64,000 bases of DNA from a virus (IMGVR_UViG_3300029288_000065:128001-192000), one strand, 5' to 3'. Shown: positions 17,853 to 47,091, counted from the first letter of the stretch. The notes: generated by a model from the sequence alone, not told the origin. Translations and numbers: made by a program.

Positions 17853-20800
17853 TCAGACCATGTTATTGATGAAATACTCGAACAGGAGTTTTCTATCTTC
17901 CATTGTCATATTAACACATGCCAGACAATGATTCTTTGTTGTATTGTAAAGTTTCGCCATCCGAACCTCATCTCCCTCCTCCAAATATCTAACAACCCTA
18001 TTCTTGATAGGAGCACTGACGACACATTCAACGATCAACTTGGCCATTTCTCTTAGAGTTGGCTCTACATCTTCAAGATATAGGTTGTATATGTTCTGTT
18101 TGACTGTTTCGTCCTCTTTCTCCCAGGCGTTCAATGCTTCTTGTTCAATTTTGGCATGGAGGTGTTCTACTTCTTTCCTCTTTTCCTCATTTTCTTCGAA
18201 AGACTTATTTGGGTCAGGTTCAAATTCAAATCTCTTGTTTAGACGTTCTACTACATCATCAATATCCAGGAGTTGCCATCCCTTACTGGCGTCTGCTTCT
18301 TGTTCTTGCTGCCATTTGGCTTCCTTTTCTTCCTCTTCTTCCTGTTCTTGTGAGAGAGGTGTGAAACCGTATAATTTTCCTCTTCTGTCCTTTTCTTGTA
18401 GGAACATTGGCATATGGATTCTTGCCCATTCTGCCATGGCAGCAGGATCTTCACCGAATTTATACCGGAGGGCATATTGCCAGAATCTGTCCAAGTCCCA
18501 GTTAAAGAATACTCTAAATGTTGCGCGAGTACTTTCAACACCGGCATAAGGTTCGTTTTCTTGACGGTAAGAATCTGCAACGTCTCTGATCAATCCTATT
18601 GATTCATCCTCAGTCTCAGTTGCGAACAGCTTTTTCTCAGGCTCACTTTTCAGATCTATCACTTTACCAAGCAACTGAGTATTCCCACCAAATACCTTCT
18701 TCTTCCATTCATCTCTTGACATATAAGGATCACCCCATGAAGAAACAATAGCTGGATCATAAAGTAATACCAACTTTTTGAAGATTCTCTGTGCTCTGGC
18801 TGGACTAATTTCAAGTTGCATAGCCTTCCCGATGAAATTAATCTCTTTCTTCTTAATCATCTGAGCACGTGCGGCCAAGAAATCATCTCCAATTGGACCA
18901 CCATAAACCTTAGACTTCTGGTCAATATATTCCTTGTAAACTTTGGTCATATATTCATCGAATTTATCTCTAATAAAAGAACCTTCCTCGCCAGCAATAG
19001 AATCAGGTAAGCCGAATTTAATCCTATTGGCTTCAGCTCTGTAAAAATCATTCTTCCACAGGTTCTTATCGGCCTTTTGGTAGGTTCTGAGAACAGAATC
19101 ATTTATATCAAAATCGACATTATGGAGACCGAACCTATCCCCAACATTTACCTTTATACCCCTTGGGCCTGTGTAGGATACAGTACCAGTCTCTGGATCA
19201 AAATCTGTAACTTCAACTGTACCATTTGGAAGATCAACAGAAACATTCTCTCGGAAATTGACGTTTTGGTCAATCAGATCTTCTGAAGTGAATTTGTTGT
19301 GCGCTGGGACACTAGAAACATAACCAGTAATTACAGGATTCTTAAACTGTGAAACCAACTGTTCCTCAATAGCATTTCTAAGGCCTTCATGAGTGGTTAA
19401 TGTTTCTTGGTAAGTAGGATCGTTCTTGTCACTTGGTAATTCTATTCCCTTTATTGTCTTTCTTGGGATAGTAATATACATCTCATATTTCATATCTTTC
19501 TCACTCTCAATTTCTTTTTTGAAATAACGGGTGAACATTTCTACTTTTTTCTCAATGGGAACTTTTGCCATATTCTCTTGGAACTCTTCAAAATCAGTAA
19601 TACCATACTTGACAAAATCGTCCTTGTGCTGTTCCCAAGTCATCCTCTCATATTTCTCGATGTTGGACGTATTCCATCTAAATTTGGCACCTGCTACCCT
19701 ATCAACCGAGATGCCTGTTCCATTGGAAACCATAATATATGCTCTGTACATCCTGCCATTGACGTTTACTGCTTGTGGTTCTGGTAGATGTATTACCGTG
19801 AAACCTACGCCCTTCTTCATCAGTTCTGGTGGTGGTGGCTGATTCAGGACTACTTCACCTGTCTCAGGATTAAACAAGAAATCACCGTTGGTATCTCTCT
19901 TGACGTGGTAGGTTCCAGACCCAAGTTTGATAATGGTTGATTCATCTTTTAGGATCTTGCTAATTGTTGGAGTACTGGCACTTCTACCTCTTGCTTTGGA
20001 GAATGTAGCAGAGGTAATACTTGGGAGTTCAGGATTGGCGTCGTCAATTTTTCCATGGATCAGGTTTAGGTCGTCTATATCATATCCCTTCTTTAAATTC
20101 TTAAAGATAGTTGAGGTTACGTCATTGGCTAGTTGGACATAAGTTCTATCAGTAACATTTAATTCTTTGACATCACGGCTTACTTTCTCAAGTTCTCCTT
20201 GGATTAATTTGAACAGGCGTGGTCCATTGAATACTGAATTACCAGAGTGAATCATACCAGGAGGCATTTTCTGGTTTTTCTGAATATAACCATAGAGTTC
20301 TTTTTCGGAGAAGTCTTCCGCTGGTGTTTCAATAATCTGATCTACCATTTGGGATATTTCATCTCGTGCTGTGAAAAATTTCCCAGCAGCTTGACGCTTC
20401 GTTTTAGCTAATTTATACATATCCATTATGTCTTTTGGATTCTGTTTGGCGTCAAAGTCTTGCATGAACGCCATTAAATCTTTCTCCATCTGTGACATAA
20501 CCACCTTGAATTGTTGGATATAATCGTCACTTGTGCTTAGATCAAGAAATTCTCGTTTTGGAATATAGATCCAAAGTTCGTAATGTGCTGGAATTTTATT
20601 GCGTGGTGTAGAAGCTCGTTCAATTCTCTTGAATGGTTCCAGACCCTGTTCCTTCGAAGTTGGTGAAATCATATCTTCAGCATAGTATTGGTATATTTTC
20701 TCCAGAGTGTCCCGTAACATCTCATATTCAGCAATTTGTTCCTCGTTGAAACCTGAATTCTCAATGGAATAAAGTGATCTTCTTGAGCCATCAGATTCTT

Positions 20801-23213
20801 CACCCAGATCCATTAAAGTCCGTTCGTAGGAAGCTTTTCTAAATGCGTTTAATCTGTCAACGATATCTGTTAGATAAGAATCAAAAAATACTTCCTTTTC
20901 TGTCTCTTCCAATGGGAGAGATACTGGACGCTTCTTATTTCGCATGATTAGATTCTTCTGGTCATCGAACCACGACCCATATTTCTCAAACGCCGCAATA
21001 ATATAATCTTGGGTGGCTTTCCCAGAATCTGGGTCATTAAGCATCTCATCTAACGATGACGAAATCCTATCCAGGTATAATCTGACAAGCATTTTCTTCT
21101 TGGTTTCGCGGTCTTTTCTATACTCCTTACGAATTCTTCTATCATGATCTCTAACTTCTGGTGATTCCTTTATAGACTGGATCATATACATCCAGGATGG
21201 GTAAGATCTCCCACCACGAGTGAAAGGCTTAGATTTGTCAACTTTTTTCTGGATTGGAGGGGCAGCACCCTCAGCTTCACAAATTACTTGTTCCAAATGC
21301 TTAAAAATATCCTCTGCAACTGCTGGCATTTTGGATTTCTTTTGCTTTAATTCAGCTGGCAGTAGTTCCTCCAAAGATCGTCGTGATGTAAAAGGATCTT
21401 CCTTATCGCTATCTGTTTTCTTTATCTCAATCTTTAACTTTGGATTCCCAGAGATTACAGCCACCAAATTAAAAATCGTCCTACCCAAAGCAACTGTACC
21501 CAGTTCATACTTCGGCAATGTCCCCTCTTTCAATTTTCTGGTATCAACATTGGTATCAGCCAATTTCTCGACAACGGTCGCAGAGAGAGCAACAATGGGA
21601 TCTTTGGATGTCTTGTAAGAGTCAAAGTTCGCAGTTACAGATTCCTTGACATTATCCATCTGTTTCTTTTTGTGAGCTTGGAATTTCTCAAGAAGTCCTT
21701 TTATATAATTTAGATCATCGAGAGTGTCAATTTTCCCGATCTTTATCCGTTTAAGGAATTCTGGGTCTAAATTTTGTGACCCTATTTCTTTTACTGCTTC
21801 TCTGGTTGTATCGATAATATCTTCAAATCTTGCTGAACCACCAACTTTTCTATACTCATCCTGTAGAGTTTTTAGATCACCATTCTTTTTGGCTGTTGTT
21901 AATTTCTGGAGTAATGCTGTTTTCTCTTGTGAACCATACTCAACATATAATGTTTTTAGGCTTTCCAATGCCTTCATGTATTTTTCTTTTGTGTTTGGAT
22001 AAAGTTCCATTGCTCTCTTTGGGAGGTCTCCTATGCTCTTTAGGAGATCATTATATTCATCTTGGGTGATCATTTTTTGTTCGAGATTATACTTCAGTAG
22101 ATCGGAAGTATTCTTTTGGAGTCTCTTTAAAGCTGTCTGTAGGTCGCCTGATCTAACTTGGGACATTTCATTGAATAATTCCAATGTGAATTGGTCAGTT
22201 AATATATCTCTGAATTCGTCAAGTGTAATGTCACCAGCATCACTAAAGTCCAGTTTGATATTTTTTAGAATATCAACTTGTTCTCCTGAGAAGAGATCTG
22301 GTCTTGTTAATAATGCTGATAGCATTGTCATTGCATCGGCAGATCCAAGATTTTTCTCTTGGAGGAAATCTATTTGCCCATCTGATAATTTACTTCCACC
22401 AGAACCTATAAATGCTTTTCCACTTATCCTTATTGTGTTAAAACTAATCTGGTTTATGATTTGATTTATTCTCTGTACAGCTTCTGGATTTATTCCCTTG
22501 TCATTTCGTACATCGTTTATTCTATTTGTCAGAAATACTTCGTTGTCAATTTCATCTTGGGTTGTTGCCTGTTTCTTGGCTTTCATAATATTATCAATGA
22601 TGTTGTTTATAGTACATTTCCCTATTTTGTCATTAATATCATCATATTCACTCTTGACCTGATCAAAATCTTTCTTTGCTTTGATATATGATTGGTATGA
22701 TTTCTTACTGTGTTCTGTTGGTCTCGATACAAAGTCACTCCATGAGGAACCATACTCTTTTAAGAAGTACCTGATCTTCTCAATTGCTTTTTGTGTTTCG
22801 GCGTTTACTGCGTCACTGCCTTTCTTTTCATCAGTTGGTAGGATTGGATTATTTGGGAACCTGTCATTGTAGAGTTTCCAGAGTTCTGTTCCTGTGAATT
22901 CTGCGTGGGACCACTGGGTACTTTGGTCGCCACGTCGAAGTGCATCATATAATGCTGCTCCGAGGACTGCTTGCTGGATTTCTGGGTCCCAGTCTTTTCC
23001 AAGTTTTCTGGAGATTAGCTGAACTTGGCGTAGGATTTGTTTGCGTCGTCTGGCGTTCTGTAATCCTGTCTTTAGATTCTTGGTATCTTCGTCTCCTGTT
23101 TCTTCTGGTTCTATACTGGGGTCTACTCTTTTCCTTTGTTCTTCTTCTCCGGCTTCTGATAGTATACTGGGTCCATGGCTTGACAGCGGTAGAAACTTAT
23201 TCTTCACAGTCAT
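17853..23213 (-). CDS. Giant protein (1786 aa), putative virion internal/ejection protein
   Basis: CAAAAATAT plus GGAG upstream; ILSE/VICE/LIVE motifs; no recognisable enzyme domain. Confidence 0.75.
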   Translation of the reverse strand: MTVKNKFLPLSSHGPSILSEAGEEEQRKRVDPSIEPEETGDEDTKNLKTGLQNARRRKQILRQVQLISRKLGKDWDPEIQQAVLGAALYDALRRGDQSTQWSHAEFTGTELWKLYNDRFPNNPILPTDEKKGSDAVNAETQKAIEKIRYFLKEYGSSWSDFVSRPTEHSKKSYQSYIKAKKDFDQVKSEYDDINDKIGKCTINNIIDNIMKAKKQATTQDEIDNEVFLTNRINDVRNDKGINPEAVQRINQIINQISFNTIRISGKAFIGSGGSKLSDGQIDFLQEKNLGSADAMTMLSALLTRPDLFSGEQVDILKNIKLDFSDAGDITLDEFRDILTDQFTLELFNEMSQVRSGDLQTALKRLQKNTSDLLKYNLEQKMITQDEYNDLLKSIGDLPKRAMELYPNTKEKYMKALESLKTLYVEYGSQEKTALLQKLTTAKKNGDLKTLQDEYRKVGGSARFEDIIDTTREAVKEIGSQNLDPEFLKRIKIGKIDTLDDLNYIKGLLEKFQAHKKKQMDNVKESVTANFDSYKTSKDPIVALSATVVEKLADTNVDTRKLKEGTLPKYELGTVALGRTIFNLVAVISGNPKLKIEIKKTDSDKEDPFTSRRSLEELLPAELKQKKSKMPAVAEDIFKHLEQVICEAEGAAPPIQKKVDKSKPFTRGGRSYPSWMYMIQSIKESPEVRDHDRRIRKEYRKDRETKKKMLVRLYLDRISSSLDEMLNDPDSGKATQDYIIAAFEKYGSWFDDQKNLIMRNKKRPVSLPLEETEKEVFFDSYLTDIVDRLNAFRKASYERTLMDLGEESDGSRRSLYSIENSGFNEEQIAEYEMLRDTLEKIYQYYAEDMISPTSKEQGLEPFKRIERASTPRNKIPAHYELWIYIPKREFLDLSTSDDYIQQFKVVMSQMEKDLMAFMQDFDAKQNPKDIMDMYKLAKTKRQAAGKFFTARDEISQMVDQIIETPAEDFSEKELYGYIQKNQKMPPGMIHSGNSVFNGPRLFKLIQGELEKVSRDVKELNVTDRTYVQLANDVTSTIFKNLKKGYDIDDLNLIHGKIDDANPELPSITSATFSKARGRSASTPTISKILKDESTIIKLGSGTYHVKRDTNGDFLFNPETGEVVLNQPPPPELMKKGVGFTVIHLPEPQAVNVNGRMYRAYIMVSNGTGISVDRVAGAKFRWNTSNIEKYERMTWEQHKDDFVKYGITDFEEFQENMAKVPIEKKVEMFTRYFKKEIESEKDMKYEMYITIPRKTIKGIELPSDKNDPTYQETLTTHEGLRNAIEEQLVSQFKNPVITGYVSSVPAHNKFTSEDLIDQNVNFRENVSVDLPNGTVEVTDFDPETGTVSYTGPRGIKVNVGDRFGLHNVDFDINDSVLRTYQKADKNLWKNDFYRAEANRIKFGLPDSIAGEEGSFIRDKFDEYMTKVYKEYIDQKSKVYGGPIGDDFLAARAQMIKKKEINFIGKAMQLEISPARAQRIFKKLVLLYDPAIVSSWGDPYMSRDEWKKKVFGGNTQLLGKVIDLKSEPEKKLFATETEDESIGLIRDVADSYRQENEPYAGVESTRATFRVFFNWDLDRFWQYALRYKFGEDPAAMAEWARIHMPMFLQEKDRRGKLYGFTPLSQEQEEEEEKEAKWQQEQEADASKGWQLLDIDDVVERLNKRFEFEPDPNKSFEENEEKRKEVEHLHAKIEQEALNAWEKEDETVKQNIYNLYLEDVEPTLREMAKLIVECVVSAPIKNRVVRYLEEGDEVRMAKLYNTTKNHCLACVNMTMEDRKLLFEYFINNMV

Positions 23214-23237: not shown

Positions 23238-23246
23238 ATATTTTTG
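23238..23246 (-). promoter_or_regulatory. Candidate late promoter CAAAAATAT
   Basis: In the short gap between the two giant genes. Confidence 0.6.
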
Positions 23247-23258
23247 AATATAATTGTT

Positions 23259-26200
23259 TTAGATCTCTTCGAAATCACCACTTGGTCCAGGTTTCAGACC
23301 CAGTTGTCGTAATTTCTCTTGCCTCTTCAACTCTTGCTCACGAGATGCAGACTTTCCTGTAGGAATTGTAACCTTGGCACCAGGACGAGCCTCAATGCCA
23401 TAGTACCCATGTGGAGGTGCAGGAGATGGAGTAATAACCTCTTCTTCCTCACCCTCCTCACCCTTTTCAGGATGATATTTCGCAGGGCCAACATACCTCT
23501 GTAATACCTTCTTAACATTCGGATCTGTCTCCTTCTGATAGAGATCCCAAATCTTATCAAAAGATGTATTCTTCCACTTTCCACCACCAACCATCAAGCT
23601 CTTCAGAGCTGTCAACATAGTCTCATCCGGGCCAGCATCCAAAATTCTTGAGATTGTACTATCGACCATTTCCTGATTTGGTTCTTTTAGACGGTCAATA
23701 AGTGACACTGCAGTATTTTCAGAGATTCTACCACCACTATCAGCTGCGAAATGTGCTGAAGTAAGATTCTTGGAAATATATCCAGCTTCATCCCTCAATG
23801 CCAATAGGAAATCCTCTTCATTATCATAAGTATTTATATTCTCGTCCCCAACCCTATGAGCTTGGAATTTTACTTCCAAATCATCAGCCAAAGGACCAAT
23901 ATTGGCATTTGACAATTCATTTGCAATTGCAACCAAATCCTCATCGCTCATTTCTGATAGAGCTTTTATCTGCTTTTTGGAATTCTTTAATGATAGAAGA
24001 ATTGCTCTCTCATCGTCTTTATCTGGGAAAGTAACACCATACTTCTTACTATAATACTTGACATATCTAACATCCTTTGAGATATCAAGCTGAATATCAG
24101 CAATATCAGATGAAGAATAATATTTTCCAGTCTTTGAATCATAAAAATTCCTGGAATTCTTCAACTGTTCCAGTAACTTTTCTTGATCTGCCAAATCTCT
24201 TGTCAATTTGGCCTCTTCTGGACCTGGTTCAGCATTTCTCAATTTTGTCCTAATGGTAGAAATTGTACCATTAACTTTCTTGATTCTTTCTGTGTCAATA
24301 GCTGGACCAACTTTCCTCTTTTCTGGAGTAGTTGATACTTCTCGGAGTTTTAATCTCTTGGCTATCTCCTGTGCCTGACTAGCAATATTGGCTTTATATT
24401 CTTCTGTGTCTACCTTGGCCAGTCTTCCTGTTATTTCACCTGCGAACATCATAATGGCATTGGAAATCTGTTGTGGGTCAATAGCTTCACCAGTTTTTGC
24501 TGATTGTCTCTTTATAGCTGCTACCTTTTGACGTGTAGCGTAAAGTTCCAAGTCTGTGTCCAGGGAAGCCATTAGATTTTGGTGTACTAGTCGTCGTACA
24601 TCTTCTGGATTCTGTTGTGGGTCCATCCCTTCTGGGAGAGAGATAGCGAAGTTACTCTCTTTATCTTGCCAAGAGTTTGAAGCTTTCCTGCGTAGTAGTT
24701 CTCTTCTAACATCATCAGTCAATTTTATAAGGATTGGATCGTTTGGATTTTTTGGATCTGGTTCTCTTGGTTGTACGCTTTCAAGTCTATCTATAATCTC
24801 ATCGAATAATTTCATTGGATCATCTCCTTTTCGGAGGGATCCAATCATTTTCAACATGGTATCAACTTCTGTGTCAGTAAACTTTCTTACGCCTTGATCG
24901 TCTTGGACGCCACGGAGGGCATTTTTCATGATTTTTGGATCTGTTATTTGTTCGGTGTCAAATCGTTCTTTTATGTTCCTTGCGTGTTCGACCAGTTCGT
25001 CAAAGTCTGGACGAATTAGTTCTCTGAAGTATTCATCATCTGGGTCGAATGTTGGTGATGCCTCAAATGACATACCAGTCTCTGGATCTCTCCAGAGATT
25101 CTTGTTCGCTGGCATCTTGAAGCCAGTTACAGGATCATGCCACTCATACTTGAATACCTTTTTGGTACCAAGGAGATCTCTAAAGAAACCAACTTTGGCC
25201 TGATCGTCATGAAGTCCAAATTTTAACATCAATAGATTTCTCTCACGGTCTGTGAGAGATGGAATTTTCATTATCATGTCAACGGTATCATGAATTTGGG
25301 CTATTGTGTCTGGCGTTGGTACGCTTAGGGATTTCTGTGTATCTATTAATTGTTCTCTCTTATCGCCGGCTCCTTGTATTTCTTGGTCAAGTGATAGAGT
25401 TGTTGACAATGGGATTGGACGTACGAAAACAAATTTGTTCAAGTACCTCTTCATGTTCCAATCACTACTTAAGTCCAACAGAGCAACATTCTTGGCACTG
25501 TTGAGGGTTTGACTTCGACCTTCCTCATCCTTTACCTTGTCAGCATAACCATTAAGTACCTGTCTAATGGTTTTATTAACCTGGCGTATCTTATCTCTGA
25601 ACTCCTGAGAAGAAGATCTCCCCTCGGATCTCTCATAATCATTTCGGATAACATAAGGCTTCCCGCCACGACCAGCAACTCGAATAGGACCAAATCCTTC
25701 CGTAAAATGCTTCCCATTGAGTACATCTTCCACAGTCTTTGGTATATCCTTATCAGGAATCTTACCAGTCTCTTTAAGACGTATGCCATCATGAGAGTAA
25801 AGTTTTCCATCTTGTGGGTTTAGGAATGTGTAAATCCACATTACGTAAGCTTGTACTGGGGCACTTACAATCAAGACATCCCAAGTTCCACCGGCTGGGT
25901 GAGCTGTAATTCGTCTTGATGGACCAGCCATAAACCGGTTGGACAATTCTTTATTAATAGTGAATAATACATACCTGACAAAACCGGGATTGGACCTCTC
26001 CATCCTTCTTCCTTCCGGTCCTTCCCTGAGTTCGTTTACCTTCTCTTCAACCTTCTTGGTAGTGAAGTTCTTATTGGACACCAATTTCTTGGCAACTTCC
26101 ATTGGAGTTACATCTTTCCACCATGTTGGTCGACCATTTTCCAGAATATCATCCGTCCAATATAACGATCCTTCTATGAATTCCAATCCGTCATATACCT

Positions 26201-29200
26201 TCTTAGCTTGATCTGTAACATACTTTTCATCTTCTGGCGCTGTTCCTCTCAGAGAAGCTCTGATTACTCTTGTAATTTCATCCAAAGACGGTTTTTGATT
26301 TTCACCCTCACCTTTAAAGTATGAAGGTTTTCCATTCCCCTTTTGATACACCCACACATTTTGCTGTGGGTGGAATTCTGCTGTTTCAGCTACTTCAAGT
26401 GCCTCTTCAGGAGTTAATTTTACTGATCTCATAACTATATCACGGAGTTGGTCTTTATCAGGCTTCGTTGGATCTTGTGGATCATTATCCAAATCGGTGT
26501 AATACCGGTCTGATTGTGGGTCGAACCAAGTATTTCTGCGTTTATCATTCTCAAGTGCTTTGAAGACCAGTTTTCTAGCTTCTTCACGTACATCGTCAAG
26601 TTCTTGCTGTTTCTTATAGAGTTGGAACTTGTAATATATTCTGTCCGCTGCTGCGTCAACCAATCCACCAATTGTGTCGAAGATCTGTTCGACTGTCCAA
26701 CCAGTACCTTGGAGTTTTTGATCCAACCATCTTTGGTAGGAATCATCATCTGAGAATGCTCTGGCAGAGAAAGGATCTGAGGGATCCAATTTCTGTTTGT
26801 AATCGTTTGGATTTACTACATCGGAAGACTGCATTATATCAGTAATTCTGTCTAAGGTACGGAGTGAACGTGGGTTTTCATAATTTGAGATTACAAGTTT
26901 GCGCCCGCTTCTCGTCTCATATTCCACTTGTTCTCTTCCATGTGATACTTCCATGGTCTGGCTTGGGTCTTGTGGATTTCTGGTACGAGGTCTATATCCC
27001 AATTGTGCGCCAAAGAGAGAAAGTGCGAGTTCAGCATCTCTCAGTGTCTGGAATGCGAAAAGTTTTTCTGGAGCTGTATCGTCATTCTCGATACTTCCAT
27101 CTTCAGCACGCTTAAGACCTATAGGAGCTTCAAAGTCAATCTTTCCGTTTTCATCAGAGAGGTAGATGCCCCAAAGGTAATCACCTGGTGTATTCCAAAT
27201 TTTCCTACCACCAACACCTCTCTTGGGTATAAATGGACTCTTTCCACCAGACTTCTTAACAACTACTTTTAGTAAGAGTGCTATTGGGTCTATGGTTTCT
27301 TCTGTTTCCATTGCATCTACTTCAAGTCTGTTATCAATATCACCAAATTTGGCCCTGGCATAATTCATAGCGTTTTCTTCAGCTGTCTTATTTCCATTTC
27401 TGGATGGGCCAGTAAAAACTTCCCGTTCTCTTTCTTGACCATCAAGATCTGTATATTTTACAATATACTTCCTGAATGGAATTACATTACCTTCTTGATC
27501 GGAATAAGTTTCTTGAATATTCCTAACAGATTCAGGATCGAAGCCTATCTTTGTGATTTCTCCACTACCAGGAGGGAATTCAACCGAGATTGGTCTACTA
27601 AAGAGACTATTATAAATCCTTTGCTTAACCTCATCGGTCAGTCTATTCCCGTAAAGGTTCAACAGGAATGATGCTTCGTTTTCTGCCTCATCACCAGATG
27701 AAGTTCTGGAGATCTTTATGTCATTCCTTCTAACTACAGCAAGGTCTAATGGTTCTCCGTAGTACAATCCTTTGATTGTAGCAAGTTGTTCATCGTTATT
27801 CACCCATTGGAATTCTTCAACTGAGATGGGGGTATGTTTCTCTGCTAGTTTTCCACCCTCTTCAACTTCTGTTCTAAACTGTGTACATGCTGCTATGATC
27901 TTGGGTTTTGCAGCTTTAAAGTCTGCAAAATAGATTCTGTTCTTGATTGCATTATAATTCTCATATAAGCTTTCTTTTTCTTGAGTATTCATTGGTTGAA
28001 TACCAAGGATGTCTCTGCGGACTTTGGATACCCATGGTCTTAGGTTTTCTGGTAGTTTGGATTCGACTTCTTCATCCGATGAAGGTGGTGCGTAGACTAT
28101 TTTTGGTTTTTTCTGGAATTTTATTTCATATGCGATTAGTCGTTCTGTGGTCTGTTCGTCTATTTCTTCATCCGACACTGATAATCCTTGATCGCGGCGG
28201 TAAAGCAATTCGTCCATCGCTTGTTCTTTAATAATCTTGACAGTCCATTCTGCGTCTTCTTCGTCATACTCTCCAGATTCCATTATCCTGGCACGTTCCT
28301 CTGGTTCCACTCTGAAGTATAATTCTTTGATGGAGTCAAGGGCATTTCTGGCGAACATTGTTGCCAGATGCTTTTTGGTTTCGTCCTGGAGGTCCCCTTC
28401 AATAATATTATAGACAGGTTGCTGAAGTCCAGGGGGTGGTACTTTTGATGCTGCTATCTGGAGTGTATCTGTGGGTGAGAGAGCTTCCAGATCTTGTGCT
28501 TCAGCCTTCTTCAGTTTTTCCAATGACAAAGTTAGAGCTTTTTGAGCATTTTCTATGCCTGAACCGGTCTGCTTGGCATTATTTAGGGTTTCCCTTTTTT
28601 CTATTACGTCTTGTTGTGCTCTGTCTACGTAGATTGCTACTAGGCCAGTTAGATTATGTTTCTTGAGGGCATTCTTTATGTCTGCGACGTATGTTGCTAT
28701 TTCTTGGGTCGTTGGTGTTTCGAGGTGTGTTGCTTGTTCTGCTGCTGATGCCCATTCGGATACTTTGGTCTTTATGTGGTTGGCTATGCTTTGGAGTACT
28801 GGTACTTGTTTTTCGTCAGTTGGGTCCATTCTTCGTACGATACCATCTATGGTTAGTCTGCCGTTACTCCATTCGGCATCTTTATCGCGTCTTAGGAATC
28901 TATCTGCCCATCGTCCTGCTGGTACCCAGGCACCGGTAGTACTTATGTCTTTTCTGGTGGCTGCTTTTTCTGTCTTTGCTTGTGGGATTACTCTATATCC
29001 CATCATGACTTTTAGGATATTGTCTGAGATTGTGGAGACCATTCTGTTTATTGGTGGTGTGAAATCTCTATTGTTGGTTGTTAGGTATGTGTTGATTGCT
29101 GGCAACATTCTTTGTAGTCTGGTGTACATCTGTTCTTTGTTGGCAGTTATTTCTGTTTCTTCTTCGGTTTCTGCCATCCCTGCCAATTCTGGGTGTTCTT

Positions 29201-29681
29201 CCTCTTCTCCTTCTGGGGTTTCTTCTTCTTTGTTGATTTCTGTTTCTTGGATTTTCTCCATTCCGATTGTAATTGCGGTTTGGAGTCCTTCGATAAATCC
29301 TACTGGATCTCCCCATCCCAGTCTTTGGAGTGTTTCTACGTCAAGTGTTTTTACGTCGCTTGATGGTAATCCCCGATTATCTTCGTCTTCTTCATCTATT
29401 GGGCTGTATATTTCTTCTGTGATCATATGGGGGTGTTTTTCTTTGATGTATTCATATACTATTCGTGCTTCTTGTTTAATTTCGTTGATTATTCCTTTGG
29501 GTCTGGCGCAACCGATGTGGACCAGTCCGATGCTTCTGAAGATGTGTCCCAGGTCTATTACTGATTCGCAGAGGGTACAAAAGTCTCTTTGGTATGCTAT
29601 TTCTTCCAGTACGCTGATTGGTAGACAGGAGTAATACTTTGGTTTGATTATCCAATTCTTCTTCCCTAATACAGTTGACAT
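23259..29681 (-). CDS. Giant protein (2140 aa) containing dispersed sigma70-like regions 2, 3.2 and 4
   Basis: LDDVREEARKLVFKALE, FVRYVLFTINKEL, LSLDQEIQG...LID, LTDRERNLLMLKFGL; GGAGG RBS. Confidence 0.65.
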   Translation of the reverse strand: MSTVLGKKNWIIKPKYYSCLPISVLEEIAYQRDFCTLCESVIDLGHIFRSIGLVHIGCARPKGIINEIKQEARIVYEYIKEKHPHMITEEIYSPIDEEDEDNRGLPSSDVKTLDVETLQRLGWGDPVGFIEGLQTAITIGMEKIQETEINKEEETPEGEEEEHPELAGMAETEEETEITANKEQMYTRLQRMLPAINTYLTTNNRDFTPPINRMVSTISDNILKVMMGYRVIPQAKTEKAATRKDISTTGAWVPAGRWADRFLRRDKDAEWSNGRLTIDGIVRRMDPTDEKQVPVLQSIANHIKTKVSEWASAAEQATHLETPTTQEIATYVADIKNALKKHNLTGLVAIYVDRAQQDVIEKRETLNNAKQTGSGIENAQKALTLSLEKLKKAEAQDLEALSPTDTLQIAASKVPPPGLQQPVYNIIEGDLQDETKKHLATMFARNALDSIKELYFRVEPEERARIMESGEYDEEDAEWTVKIIKEQAMDELLYRRDQGLSVSDEEIDEQTTERLIAYEIKFQKKPKIVYAPPSSDEEVESKLPENLRPWVSKVRRDILGIQPMNTQEKESLYENYNAIKNRIYFADFKAAKPKIIAACTQFRTEVEEGGKLAEKHTPISVEEFQWVNNDEQLATIKGLYYGEPLDLAVVRRNDIKISRTSSGDEAENEASFLLNLYGNRLTDEVKQRIYNSLFSRPISVEFPPGSGEITKIGFDPESVRNIQETYSDQEGNVIPFRKYIVKYTDLDGQEREREVFTGPSRNGNKTAEENAMNYARAKFGDIDNRLEVDAMETEETIDPIALLLKVVVKKSGGKSPFIPKRGVGGRKIWNTPGDYLWGIYLSDENGKIDFEAPIGLKRAEDGSIENDDTAPEKLFAFQTLRDAELALSLFGAQLGYRPRTRNPQDPSQTMEVSHGREQVEYETRSGRKLVISNYENPRSLRTLDRITDIMQSSDVVNPNDYKQKLDPSDPFSARAFSDDDSYQRWLDQKLQGTGWTVEQIFDTIGGLVDAAADRIYYKFQLYKKQQELDDVREEARKLVFKALENDKRRNTWFDPQSDRYYTDLDNDPQDPTKPDKDQLRDIVMRSVKLTPEEALEVAETAEFHPQQNVWVYQKGNGKPSYFKGEGENQKPSLDEITRVIRASLRGTAPEDEKYVTDQAKKVYDGLEFIEGSLYWTDDILENGRPTWWKDVTPMEVAKKLVSNKNFTTKKVEEKVNELREGPEGRRMERSNPGFVRYVLFTINKELSNRFMAGPSRRITAHPAGGTWDVLIVSAPVQAYVMWIYTFLNPQDGKLYSHDGIRLKETGKIPDKDIPKTVEDVLNGKHFTEGFGPIRVAGRGGKPYVIRNDYERSEGRSSSQEFRDKIRQVNKTIRQVLNGYADKVKDEEGRSQTLNSAKNVALLDLSSDWNMKRYLNKFVFVRPIPLSTTLSLDQEIQGAGDKREQLIDTQKSLSVPTPDTIAQIHDTVDMIMKIPSLTDRERNLLMLKFGLHDDQAKVGFFRDLLGTKKVFKYEWHDPVTGFKMPANKNLWRDPETGMSFEASPTFDPDDEYFRELIRPDFDELVEHARNIKERFDTEQITDPKIMKNALRGVQDDQGVRKFTDTEVDTMLKMIGSLRKGDDPMKLFDEIIDRLESVQPREPDPKNPNDPILIKLTDDVRRELLRRKASNSWQDKESNFAISLPEGMDPQQNPEDVRRLVHQNLMASLDTDLELYATRQKVAAIKRQSAKTGEAIDPQQISNAIMMFAGEITGRLAKVDTEEYKANIASQAQEIAKRLKLREVSTTPEKRKVGPAIDTERIKKVNGTISTIRTKLRNAEPGPEEAKLTRDLADQEKLLEQLKNSRNFYDSKTGKYYSSSDIADIQLDISKDVRYVKYYSKKYGVTFPDKDDERAILLSLKNSKKQIKALSEMSDEDLVAIANELSNANIGPLADDLEVKFQAHRVGDENINTYDNEEDFLLALRDEAGYISKNLTSAHFAADSGGRISENTAVSLIDRLKEPNQEMVDSTISRILDAGPDETMLTALKSLMVGGGKWKNTSFDKIWDLYQKETDPNVKKVLQRYVGPAKYHPEKGEEGEEEEVITPSPAPPHGYYGIEARPGAKVTIPTGKSASREQELKRQEKLRQLGLKPGPSGDFEEI

Positions 29682-29701
29682 GTTGGTCCTCCGATTTATC
29701 T

Positions 29702-29710
29702 ATATTTTTG
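29702..29710 (-). promoter_or_regulatory. Candidate late promoter CAAAAATAT
   Basis: About 20 nt upstream of ATG 29681. Confidence 0.6.
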
Positions 29711-29727
29711 CTTATTTTCGGAGGATA

Positions 29728-30345
29728 TTACTTTTTGGGCAATGTTGGGAGAGGTTTTTTGTTTACTGTATCTTTATCTCCCACCAATTTTTCTTGTCTG
29801 GGTATTGCTGCAAGTGGAATACCCAATTTCTTTAATGTATCGACACTACCAGCTCTTCGTCCTCGCTCTATTTTACTTAATTCTGCTGAGCTGATTCCTA
29901 CTTTGTCTGCTAATTCTTTTCTGGTTCCACCTTTTAGTTTCTTTTCTACTGCTTGTGATACTGCTTTGATGGTTGGTGTTTTTGCTTCACCTTCGAATAA
30001 TTCTTTGACTTTCTCTGCTGTTGGTTTTTCCAGGAATATGTTATTTGGGATTCGTTCAACTGCTTCTTGGACGATTTGGTATATTTCTTTTTCTGCTGGT
30101 ACTCCTCTGAAGTTAAAGATTTTGCGGACGAGGATATGGAGATCTTCGGCGGTTATTGCTGGTGGGATTATTTGTCTGCATTCACAGAGTTGAATATAGT
30201 TCTTTACTATTGCTAGAATATCTTCTGAAGTGAATGTATTTTTCAGTTCTTTTGATAATCTTTCCCAGAGTGGTCCTTTTAGTAATCCTCTGTAGAGGTC
30301 TATTTCGTCCAGGGCTACGGTTAGTTCTTGATCAAAGTTTCCCAT
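29728..30345 (-). CDS. XRE-family HTH protein
   Basis: TRKELADKVGISSAELSKIERGRR. Confidence 0.8.
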   Translation of the reverse strand: MGNFDQELTVALDEIDLYRGLLKGPLWERLSKELKNTFTSEDILAIVKNYIQLCECRQIIPPAITAEDLHILVRKIFNFRGVPAEKEIYQIVQEAVERIPNNIFLEKPTAEKVKELFEGEAKTPTIKAVSQAVEKKLKGGTRKELADKVGISSAELSKIERGRRAGSVDTLKKLGIPLAAIPRQEKLVGDKDTVNKKPLPTLPKK

Positions 30346-44337: not shown

Positions 44338-44949
44338 TCATGGTGCGGGACGAGTTTGAAGAGGTCCACCAGCCCAAATGAGTATGTTCTTATCTTTGTG
44401 CCCTGTCTTATCAATCGCATAAATCGAAGCCAACTTCCAAAGTGGTTTCCTTTGTTTTAATATTCCCTTTATTTCTAGAGCAAACTCTGGATCTTTCATT
44501 TTCTCAATATTATTTTCATATCTACCAATATATAATGACTTTAATTCGTCATTTTCATTATAAGCCCATGCCTTAACTTTTAAGCCAGAATGACTGATTT
44601 CTTCTGATTTTAACGGTACGTATATTGGTGCTGCTTTTCGTTTGTTTAGGTGACGGTCCAGACAAATCTCAACTGTGACAATCATAGCATTCCAGACAAC
44701 AAATGTGAATAGTCCCGATCTGAAAAAGATTGTATCATTCCCATATCTTTTTAATCGGACTTTGTCTTTCGCAGTTAAATTGATAACTTTGTCAGCTTGA
44801 TGGAAGCGTTTACAGAATTCTTCAAGCATATTGGTTTTCTTCCCGTTGGGGAATAACCTTGCCCAACGAGAAGAAAACCGCCACATTGCATGGTCTGTAA
44901 TTCCAAGTGTAATTATTTTCCCTTTTTTGTTCTTGTAACTCGGAAGCAT
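44338..44949 (-). CDS. Hypothetical protein (N-terminal ITDHA..RF motif, RelE/BECR-like or DUF4258-like)
   Basis: ITDHAMWRF...FVV...IVTV pattern. Confidence 0.55.
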   Translation of the reverse strand: MLPSYKNKKGKIITLGITDHAMWRFSSRWARLFPNGKKTNMLEEFCKRFHQADKVINLTAKDKVRLKRYGNDTIFFRSGLFTFVVWNAMIVTVEICLDRHLNKRKAAPIYVPLKSEEISHSGLKVKAWAYNENDELKSLYIGRYENNIEKMKDPEFALEIKGILKQRKPLWKLASIYAIDKTGHKDKNILIWAGGPLQTRPAP

Positions 44950-45053
44950 AATTACCTATCCAGGAGGTAGCGCTCCACCAACCATCCTTCCTTACCTTTT
45001 TGTGGACCGGTTTGGACACGGACGTAGTAATCACGCCACACATCATTACTGTA

Positions 45054-47018
45054 TCAGCAGCGGATTGCGCGAAGAATCTTCATCTTCGCATTGTGGAGAA
45101 CCTGCCTAACATGCTTTAGATTAACGTCTCTTGCGGCTGCAACAGTCAAGACCCCAGGAATGGTCTTTTCCTTGGTACCGGTATCATCCTTCTCCTTAAT
45201 AGGAGACTTGAATACCAGAGGATACTGGTGAGCAATTTCCTCTACTTCCTTGATTTTCTGATGATCAAGGCCATAAGCCTGAGCGAACACCAGATTCTCT
45301 TCCAGAGTCAAACCAGCAAACTTCCTGGCCGTCTGGACCAGAGGGTAAAACTTCGGATCTTCCTCCAACTCCTCGAAAGAGAGATCCTGGAGCTTCTTGT
45401 CGCCAGCTTCCTGGAACTGGGCAATCCTCTGACGAGAAACGGTCCTGTTCTTGTTGGTATCATTGGTCAACTTGCCGAAGTTATTGGCTATCTCAGAACC
45501 AGCCAATTTCTCCTTCCCGTTGATCCCATAGATGTGCTCCAACACCACACGCTGCTTGTCAGAAAGGACTACTTGGGAAGTAAGCCTGCTTACCAGTTCT
45601 ACCATCTCATTCTGGCTAGCAATCTCATCCGGCTGAGCGAACGGAATACCAGTCTGGAATCCACCATCAGTCCTCTTGGCGAGCAAGTCAGCCTTCTGAG
45701 AATAGCTGACCGTACCAGTCAGGACTCCACCCTCTTCAGGATCTTCTGCCCCATCCAGACTCACAGGATTCCCATGGAAATCAGGATTAGTGGCGAAAAG
45801 CTGAACCAGGTCAGCCACGCATTGGACACGGTCAGAACTACTGGCATTTAGTGATACCTTCCTGGACCCAGGAGTATTGTTGAACTTCAAGTTTAGATAA
45901 TCAACCAGGTAATCCAGAACATCGCCATCCAGGTTTCTGAGGTTAAACTTCCCAGAAACTACCCAAATGTAGACGTTCTTCTGACCAAGTTTCTGGATCA
46001 GTCGGTATTGCCAGTTGGGAGGAGTACCGATTCCCAGACCATCAGTCCCGTTGATAATTTCATAGGACTTGTCAGACTTTGACAGTTCAAGATATGAATT
46101 GAAACCCTGGTCCTTAGCAATTTCGTCCAGTTCTCTGGACCCGATAGGCCCCAGGAAGTTCTCTTCCCAATAAATTATCTCGTCGAGATATTCATATACT
46201 TTGTCCTTTATTTCTTGGATCTTTGTCTCGGATTTTACATCTTCGAAGGATTCATATTTTAGCGTCTGGGCATGCCTGTCCATTTCATGTTGCTTGACTT
46301 TTCCAGTCAGATAGATGGTGATTGCTTGTAGAACTTCGGTCACGGACGGGCGTTTTTCAGGAGTTTTTACGATTCCTGATTGGGCTGACGGGCGGCGTGT
46401 ACTGGTTCTGATTCTGCTGTAGCCGTGCTTGGCGAATGGTGCCATTCCTGCATCGGTCTTGATTGCGAACATCAGGCCTATTGCGCCGTTCTGTTTGCAT
46501 TCGTCCACGTCGCAGCGCTTGGAGTAGTAGCGTTTGGCGTTTTCTCCAATATAATTGCTCATTGCCTCTACGAGTTCGTCTTGTGTCCAGTTGTAGAGGA
46601 GTGGATGTTTGATCTTGTTGAGGGAGTCGAAGGTCTTGGGGAGCTTGCAGAATTCTTCGTATTCTTCCTTGGTCGGGAGGCCTTGGTAGCGGGTAATCTC
46701 GACTCCGTTCACTTTGACTTTTAGGATTTGTGTAATCTTCTTTAGAGTCTTGACTGAGCGTTGGACGTTGAAGAAGATTTGGATTTTTTCTTCCGGGACG
46801 CCGATGGAGAGCAGGTGGTCGCGGATGACTTTTTCGAGTTCTTGGTTTTTGCTGTTGTCTTCTTTCTTTTGTTTCTTGATGCTTTTCTTGTCATAGACGA
46901 TTTCGGCGCGGATGAATTGTTCTGCTTCTTTGTTTCCGATATTAGCCGTCAGGTTCTGACGGATTTCCTCTAGCAGAAGGGCATGATCAGAGACGATGAG
47001 GGGTGGTTCTTTGGACAT
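45054..47018 (-). CDS. Phage sigma70-family factor (654 aa) with insertion and duplicated region 4
   Basis: AKRY...VDECKQNGAIGLMFAI...FAKHGYSRIR (region 2); VSLDG (3.2); LSDKQRVVLEHIYG...EIA...VSRQRIAQ (4); AAGGAG before MSKE. Confidence 0.8.
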   Translation of the reverse strand: MSKEPPLIVSDHALLLEEIRQNLTANIGNKEAEQFIRAEIVYDKKSIKKQKKEDNSKNQELEKVIRDHLLSIGVPEEKIQIFFNVQRSVKTLKKITQILKVKVNGVEITRYQGLPTKEEYEEFCKLPKTFDSLNKIKHPLLYNWTQDELVEAMSNYIGENAKRYYSKRCDVDECKQNGAIGLMFAIKTDAGMAPFAKHGYSRIRTSTRRPSAQSGIVKTPEKRPSVTEVLQAITIYLTGKVKQHEMDRHAQTLKYESFEDVKSETKIQEIKDKVYEYLDEIIYWEENFLGPIGSRELDEIAKDQGFNSYLELSKSDKSYEIINGTDGLGIGTPPNWQYRLIQKLGQKNVYIWVVSGKFNLRNLDGDVLDYLVDYLNLKFNNTPGSRKVSLNASSSDRVQCVADLVQLFATNPDFHGNPVSLDGAEDPEEGGVLTGTVSYSQKADLLAKRTDGGFQTGIPFAQPDEIASQNEMVELVSRLTSQVVLSDKQRVVLEHIYGINGKEKLAGSEIANNFGKLTNDTNKNRTVSRQRIAQFQEAGDKKLQDLSFEELEEDPKFYPLVQTARKFAGLTLEENLVFAQAYGLDHQKIKEVEEIAHQYPLVFKSPIKEKDDTGTKEKTIPGVLTVAAARDVNLKHVRQVLHNAKMKILRAIRC

Positions 47019-47062
47019 GTTCGGCTCCTTTCGTCGCACGAACGGCACGAGATGACACGAGA

Positions 47063-47091
47063 ATTTTACCACATTTGGTGGTTTTTGTCAA
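47063..47091 (-). promoter_or_regulatory. Canonical sigma70 promoter TTGACA-17-TAAAAT driving the sigma gene
   Basis: Near-consensus, with an extended TG. Confidence 0.75.

Follow-up and report, generated by a model that had tools for sequence, protein, structure and literature searches.

Sigma factors hold core RNA polymerase at several places: the beta-prime clamp helices are contacted by domain 2 and the beta flap tip by domain 4, while region 3.2 follows the path by which the RNA leaves. Phages without a polymerase of their own are thought to redirect the host enzyme by means of small proteins that they produce once inside the cell. As tools of transcription that are packaged in virions, only whole polymerases have, to our knowledge, been described (N4, phiKZ-like and crAss-like phages), besides enzymes such as T4 Alt. 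Here we analysed a giant gene of an uncultured phage known from a linear IMG/VR virus record of 233,959 bp (IMGVR_UViG_3300029288_000065, here G000). The window, that is, the whole stretch of DNA analysed, comprises 64,000 nucleotides and corresponds to bases 128,001-192,000 of the record. The product of giant gene 1, P0001 (2140 residues), had been read in an earlier note on this DNA as a giant sigma factor that is packaged, processed and ejected. From its sequence and its modelled structure, P0001 looks like a giant late protein with a predicted sigma-derived docking core for RNA polymerase, and not like a canonical sigma factor.

Among described proteins, P0001 can be compared with the two-domain factors of the sigma70 family (groups 3-4, including extracytoplasmic function (ECF) factors; SigE, SigW, AlgU and sigma28). 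As in these, a domain 2-like four-helix unit, predicted in a low-confidence model, comes first and is followed, in the same order, by an acidic 3.2 linker (S-L-D ...) and a 4.1 helix of the form L-T-D-x-E/Q-x-x-L-L-x-L-K-F-G-L-D-D. P0001 differs from them in being about 10 times larger, with an insertion of about 175 residues in the 2.2/2.3 loop and extensions of about 1500 residues, and in having neither a detected 4.2 helix nor a Pfam match. T4 uses a 'split sigma' made up of gp55 and gp33, the latter a mimic of sigma domain 4 on the beta flap (PMC2988020). Like T4, the present phage is of T4 type and lacks its own polymerase, and P0001 is proposed to join, in a similar manner, a domain 2-like unit and a flap-binding part with no DNA-reading function, with single-element promoters upstream of virion genes. 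In contrast to gp55 and gp33, the parts are fused within a giant protein that has no sequence match to gp55 and in which no clamp-binding tail was identified.

Two further groups of phage proteins resemble P0001 in their proposed delivery. T4 Alt and the internal proteins IPI-III are packaged in the head, processed by gp21 and ejected (PMC3012670, PMC5512222); they share with P0001 late synthesis, a leader with L/I-x-E type sites that in P0001 is putative, and an S77 protease, and P0001 too is proposed to act on the RNA polymerase of the host as infection begins. However, Alt is an ADP-ribosyltransferase, whereas P0001 would act by stoichiometric docking and its packaging is putative. The N4 virion RNA polymerase and the polyvalent injected proteins are giant proteins entering the cell with the DNA (PMC4496689, PMC5512222), as is proposed for P0001. 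Unlike these (Iyer et al. 2017), P0001 yielded no polymerase, enzymatic or multiple effector domains. The survey of polyvalent proteins (PMC5512222) nowhere uses the term 'sigma', and our search of the literature returned no description of a packaged or virion-delivered sigma factor. Proteomics of phage SU10 detected a sigma factor by a single peptide, among polymerase and other non-structural proteins (PMC4281155).

The giant open reading frame (ORF) is real, as the earlier note had it: 2140 residues are encoded in a single open frame and there are full-length homologues. Using a word-index search and an exhaustive profile search, which together covered about 15 billion metagenomic proteins, we found four other members, giving a family of five. 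The word-index search (5.8 billion clusters) returned a single homologue, P0003, which has 2176 residues and is 38% identical to P0001 over the full length. The profile search (1.84 billion representatives) added P0004, a full-length homologue of 2381 residues with about 25% identity, and two fragments. Neither the whole protein nor the core, used as tblastn queries, retrieved a relative from 50,697 phage records, and scans of IMG/VR contigs and of metagenomes yielded no further ones. Apart from the sigma-like block described below, comparisons with Pfam, PHROG and PDB sequences detected no domain in P0001, and an Atlas feature search with residues 1-840 was likewise without a usable match.

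Conservation within the family peaks at residues 1451-1500. We compared this part of P0001 by hhalign with an alignment of seven sigma70-family proteins (A7) and with a subset of five cellular-type sigmas. Residues 1425-1495 aligned with sigma regions 3.2-4.1 over 66-67 columns, with scores of 36-45, probabilities of 60-92% and P values of 7e-7 to 9e-5. The probability was 60% against all seven sigmas (P 8.8e-5) and 90% against the five cellular-type sigmas (P 1.8e-6, score 45). Regions 3.2 and 4.1, which had been claimed at residues 1429-1447 and 1476-1490, are in place, and their score of 36-45 lies above nulls of about 20-22: the maximum was 19.6 for a reversed sigma alignment and 21.6 for the unrelated family of P0002, the product of the adjacent giant gene. 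When windows of 116 residues were slid across the P0001 family, the 3.2-4.1 block scored 37.5 and 35.7 and no position elsewhere exceeded 19. The same register was reproduced by P0001, P0003 and P0004 singly (scores 26-32) and likewise by the distant pair P0004 and P0005 (30). With a profile of residues 1415-1530, the top five matches among PDB sequences were sigma region 4 chains (E 0.036-0.37). When all 347 ORFs of the phage were searched, unfiltered, with a sigma hidden Markov model (HMM), P0001 ranked first (E 0.014). The alignment ends at F-G-L-D-D, and its confidence is zero beyond that point. Judged by sequence, P0001 carries a region 3.2 linker followed by a 4.1 helix, as sigma70-family proteins do.

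For the region upstream of this block, we obtained an AlphaFold2 (AF2) model of residues 840-1560 (721 residues) from the five sequences; the alignments were shallow because the family is so small. The mean predicted local distance difference test score (pLDDT) was 51. Helices 979-989, 997-1018, 1025-1045 and 1234-1251 reached 58-74, and the model packs helices 979-1045 against helix 1234-1251 across the insertion of about 175 residues. This matches the earlier suggestion that segments 2.1/2.2 and 2.3/2.4 come together across a large insertion. The model was compared with 48,161 representative chains by VIA-align, a method independent of Foldseek. Of the first 25 rows, 21 were sigma domain 2 structures, and of the first 38, 27 were. 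The highest Z, 8.9, was that of SigB; pro-sigmaK gave 8.3, SigW 8.0, the N-terminal domain of SigE 8.0 (80/80 residues, root-mean-square deviation 2.7 A) and sigmaA domain 2 7.7 (2.2 A over 64 residues); sigma70, sigma28, sigma32, RpoS, SigC, SigR, SigL, SigK and CnrH are also in the list. The sigma domain 2 alignments, made on a low-confidence model, cover 64-80 residues at 2.2-2.8 A, and all sigma matches span model residues 140-416, corresponding to P0001 residues 979-1255. VIA-align does not manufacture sigma matches, since the other low-confidence model, that of the 3.2-4.1 block, gave a mixed VIA-align list with no family on top; its Foldseek list was mixed and uninformative as well. The weight of this model-based result is in the uniformity of the list and not in the absolute Z.

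Weak signals from sequence were in agreement. Four of the eight sub-threshold matches obtained with a profile of residues 975-1060 against PDB sequences were ECF sigma domain 2 (E about 1), and in language-model features several of the closest neighbours were clusters of phage sigma70-family proteins (0.82-0.83, under the threshold of the tool). All four sequences have an aromatic residue where sigma70 has Y430; the melting residues W433 and W434 of sigma70 have no conserved equivalents in the P0001 family. The proposed regions 2.1/2.2 (residues 1005-1055) and 2.3/2.4 (1234-1250) are supported by the fold of the low-confidence AF2 model, through VIA-align, whereas their sequence scores do not rise above noise.

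The displaced region 4.2 that had been suggested at residues 1771-1817 was not supported. The segment is present, as are all five segments quoted in support of the sigma reading (residues 1005-1055, 1234-1250, 1429-1447, 1476-1490 and 1771-1817), but on its own it aligned to the wrong part of sigma, with a score of 13.4. Appended to the 4.1 block, it added about 6 points, the same as several other helical windows did. No 4.2 candidate stood out when windows of 45 residues across the C-terminal third were appended to the 4.1 block, and AF2 places strands after F-G-L-D-D, where region 4.2 would be expected. Of the series of sigma70-like segments proposed to stand in order with large insertions, domain 2 (by its modelled fold), the 3.2 linker and the 4.1 half of domain 4 find support, and region 4.2 does not.

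A number of results weigh against a packaged, sigma-derived factor. The Pfam models Sigma70_r2, r3 and r4, which had been named as a check, gave no match at E up to 10 with either the whole of P0001 or its segments. No -35 recognition helix (region 4.2) was found in P0001, alignment confidence being zero past the 4.1 helix. By hhalign the 2.1/2.2 and 2.3/2.4 segments scored 18.1 and 15.9, which is noise level, though they aligned to the right part of sigma; excision of the insertion gave a collinear alignment that scored 26.0 against A7 and 15 against the five cellular sigmas, thus only 15-26. Foldseek with the 721-residue model found nothing, an ESM-Atlas shape search gave only global matches of low template-modelling (TM) score, and among helical models a Z of 8-9 is moderate. 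Both AF2 models have a mean pLDDT of about 50 and derive from five-sequence alignments, and what AF2 shows may reflect no more than those weak motifs in the sequence. When the 3.2-4.1 block was modelled by itself (pLDDT 49), the result was unlike sigma domain 4. About 1500 residues flanking the core have no detectable relatives and are unexplained. As to packaging, [ILV]xE is common in the proteome, 167 of the 347 ORFs having at least one within their first 40 residues, and the gene for P0001 lies in the replication-gene half of the genome, outside the head module.

P0001 fails as a canonical sigma factor because no curated model matches it and its -35 recognition helix is either missing or too altered to be recognised. 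Nevertheless, we consider it quite probable that its centre derives from a sigma70-type protein. We lean slightly towards the view that P0001 binds RNA polymerase. The explanation that we favour as a whole, a giant late protein whose centre is a degenerate sigma70-type core composed of a split domain 2-like four-helix unit, an acidic 3.2 linker and the 4.1 half of domain 4, is possible but falls somewhat short of even chances.

Cleavage of the gp21 type occurs in T4 after L/I-x-E. The first 100 residues of P0001 hold 8 [ILV]xE sites against 1.8 expected (shuffle P about 0.0005), and acidic runs follow, in agreement with the clustered sites and acidic tract pointed out before. One of them, [VL][LI]E at residues 24-26, is shared by the three full-length orthologues. 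The T4-type prohead protease that had been invoked has a counterpart in this genome: an S77 protease is encoded between the portal and capsid genes (PF03420, E 7e-19). A capsid-targeting sequence is described in T4 (PMC3012670), and head proteins of the giant phage SPN3US carry N-terminal propeptides of 20-254 residues that are cut at multiple sites, many of these proteins being packaged with the genome and ejected (PMC10052503). By analogy, the N-terminal sites of P0001 fit T4-type capsid targeting with gp21-type cleavage, and also the multiply cut propeptides of giant phages. [ILV]xE is unspecific, however, and the giant genes lie outside the head module; we therefore propose the packaging and ejection of P0001 tentatively, as plausible at slightly less than even odds. 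In the major capsid protein of the phage (G000:C1:50087-51649, + strand), V-L-E is found at residues 26-28 and the PHROG match starts at residue 30; this V-L-E is likely a maturation site.

P0001 is accompanied by a second giant protein, P0002. A P0002 homologue follows the giant gene 1 homologue in both contigs that carry a full-length homologue (L001 and L015), and the adjacency is therefore conserved in three phages. In L001, three ORFs (74, 262 and 1565 residues) together make up the P0002 homologue. No known domain was found in P0002 with Pfam or PHROG, and a profile search of PDB sequences with the P0002 family was empty. The sequence [IV][LI]-S-E-A at residues 12-24 is kept in the P0002 family in the three phages, while its flanks differ. 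L015 also encodes a canonical sigma factor of 302 residues (L015:8347-9255; Sigma70_r4, 2.7e-12), two genes upstream of its giant gene.

The giant gene had been described as sitting behind a promoter-like motif, which we confirmed: CAAAAATAT is found 20 nt upstream of the P0001 ATG, and the window contains 9 copies of it where 1.7 would be expected. Across the genome, 26 of the 347 ORFs have AAA[AT]ATA at 12-45 nt upstream (5.7 expected); most of these are large genes in the structural half. The sharing of this motif with structural genes supports co-expression of the giant genes with virion genes, and hence the idea that P0001 is made late. The single element (A/G)CAAA(A/T)ATA is a candidate for a late promoter resembling the T4 type. 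Further sites of this motif are at G000:C1 28998, 64690 and 86336.

We detected no Sigma70_r2/r4 (at E up to 10), no gp55 (phrog_234) and no multisubunit (beta) or T7-type RNA polymerase in the 234-kb genome, the completeness of which is estimated at 89%. Without a recognisable polymerase of its own, the phage must use that of the host. Two ORFs of 203 and 672 residues (window 44338-47072, - strand), neither with a Pfam or PHROG match, were searched for a separate sigma gene; the 672-residue ORF gave scattered sub-threshold matches to the sigma HMM alone. According to a survey of jumbo phages, sigma factors are present in all those of the gp23 type ('group 2') (PMC7824862). Specificity factors that escape recognition here leave room both for a packaged factor and for a cytoplasmic 'fused gp55-gp33'.

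In the reading that we favour, P0001 would be synthesised alongside the virion genes, loaded into the prohead and trimmed by the S77 prohead protease at its N-terminal [ILV]xE sites. After ejection with the DNA, it would take the position of the host sigma factor by docking on the core polymerase of the cell, and would draw the enzyme off host promoters onto phage DNA, with at most -10-type recognition, comparable to the 'split sigma' of T4. That polymerase binding and packaging with ejection hold jointly is doubtful. The complete scheme, in which a sigma-derived factor is carried in a T4-type head, cut, ejected with its giant partner and seizes host core polymerase before phage gene expression, is on the unlikely side. 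If it were true, a sigma-type docking core in a protein that is giant and probably virion-borne would add a third strategy to the small proteins of the infected cell and the packaged polymerases or enzymes, and would explain how the programme starts in some jumbo phages that have no recognisable sigma factor or polymerase.

Were P0001 not packaged, it could serve late in infection as a specificity factor for AGCAAAAATATA-type promoters, the natural equivalent of a gp55-gp33 fusion. Engineered fusions of gp55 and gp33 are functional (PMC2988020), P0001 has domain 2-like and 4.1-like parts and no region 4.2, and the genome contains no recognisable sigma or gp55, yet a single-element motif precedes its structural genes. 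However, the gene for P0001 itself stands behind the motif that would have to be recognised, neither a length of 2140 residues nor an obligatory giant partner is readily explained in a soluble initiation factor, the cluster of sites at the N-terminus is left without a role, and the L015 relative has a normal sigma factor besides its giant protein. We regard such a function as unlikely. Equally improbable in our view is a head-internal or ejected cargo with no role at RNA polymerase, whose sigma likeness would come from convergent helical motifs or a defunct captured fragment. It would account for the failure of curated sigma models, the low-confidence models, the lack of a recognised fold over most of P0001, and the tandem giant partner with its N-terminal cut-site motif, which fits a set of ejection proteins. 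Against it stand the conservation of the 3.2-4.1-like block, which is the highest in the family and scores far above calibrated nulls, and the presence of two separate sigma-like modules in sigma order.

The recognisable sigma parts of P0001 are those that contact polymerase, without a recognition helix, and the aromatic residue equivalent to Y430 is kept while the equivalents of W433 and W434 are not conserved. This would also suit an inhibitor that competes with sigma, the core blocking the sigma sites of host polymerase and shutting off the host with no promoter specificity; known phage factors displace host sigma or act at the beta flap (PMC12276001, PMC3351154). Known phages use small proteins for this purpose, however, and we consider an inhibitor quite improbable, although the present data do not separate inhibition from redirection. 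Finally, the large size and the late-type motif could belong to a structural tail or capsid component, such as a tape measure or fibre, or to a highly divergent virion RNA polymerase. A tape measure or fibre is opposed by the charged, helix-rich composition, unlike that of fibres, and by the predicted helices, and the tail and head modules are elsewhere in the genome. A divergent virion RNA polymerase was rejected, as there is no conserved DxDGD-type motif, no conserved set of catalytic aspartates and no match to a polymerase family. Together, these last explanations are very improbable. Compared with all of them, a sigma-derived docking core in a packaged protein remains the reading that we favour. 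The features discussed are listed in Table 1.

Table 1. Positions of the features in the window, counted from its first nucleotide
Feature	Residues	Position	Strand	Remarks
HTH_3 (XRE-type) regulator	205 in all	29728..30345	-	Pfam HTH_3 1.5e-8; directly upstream of P0001
AGCAAAAATATA promoter-like motif		29701..29712	-	20 nt before P0001 ATG; identical 12-mer before tail-sheath gene
Giant gene 1 (P0001)	2140 in all	23259..29681	-	Single open frame; GGAGGA ribosome site before ATG
Propeptide-like N-terminus of P0001	1-100	29382..29681	-	Clustered [ILV]xE sites
Acidic tracts	96-178	29148..29396	-	DEEDED from residue 96, EEEE from 159; Glu-rich stretch
Sigma domain 2-like helices (2.1/2.2-like)	979-1055	26517..26747	-	AF2 helices and structural matches
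Insertion in 2.2/2.3 loop	1056-1230	25992..26516	-	Between 'FDP' and 'NPGF'; skipped by structural alignments
Region 2.3/2.4-like helix	1231-1255	25917..25991	-	AF2 helix 1234-1251 packs on 979-1045
Region 3.2 linker and region 4.1-like module	1425-1495	25197..25409	-	hhalign; best-conserved stretch of family
Proposed region 4.2	1771-1817	24231..24371	-	Unsupported
CAAAAATAT motif before giant gene 2		23238..23246	-	24 nt before P0002 start codon
Giant gene 2 (P0002)	1786 in all	17853..23213	-	Conserved tandem partner of giant gene 1

The three genes at the locus are closely spaced: P0001 starts 45 nt after the HTH_3 regulator gene and giant gene 2 follows 45 nt beyond P0001. An orthologue of the regulator, 39% identical, occupies the same position in L001. 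Elsewhere in the genome, the phage carries T4-type morphogenesis genes for a baseplate wedge, tail sheath, large terminase, portal and gp23-type major capsid protein. The major capsid protein is 28-40% identical to known ones, the closest (40%) being that of LR756511.1, a 595-kb uncultured huge phage. Outside the window, between the portal and the S77 prohead protease, lies an ORF of 1138 residues with no family match (G000:C1:45088-48504, + strand). It is preceded by a CGCAAAAATAAT motif and is a candidate for another large head-internal protein.

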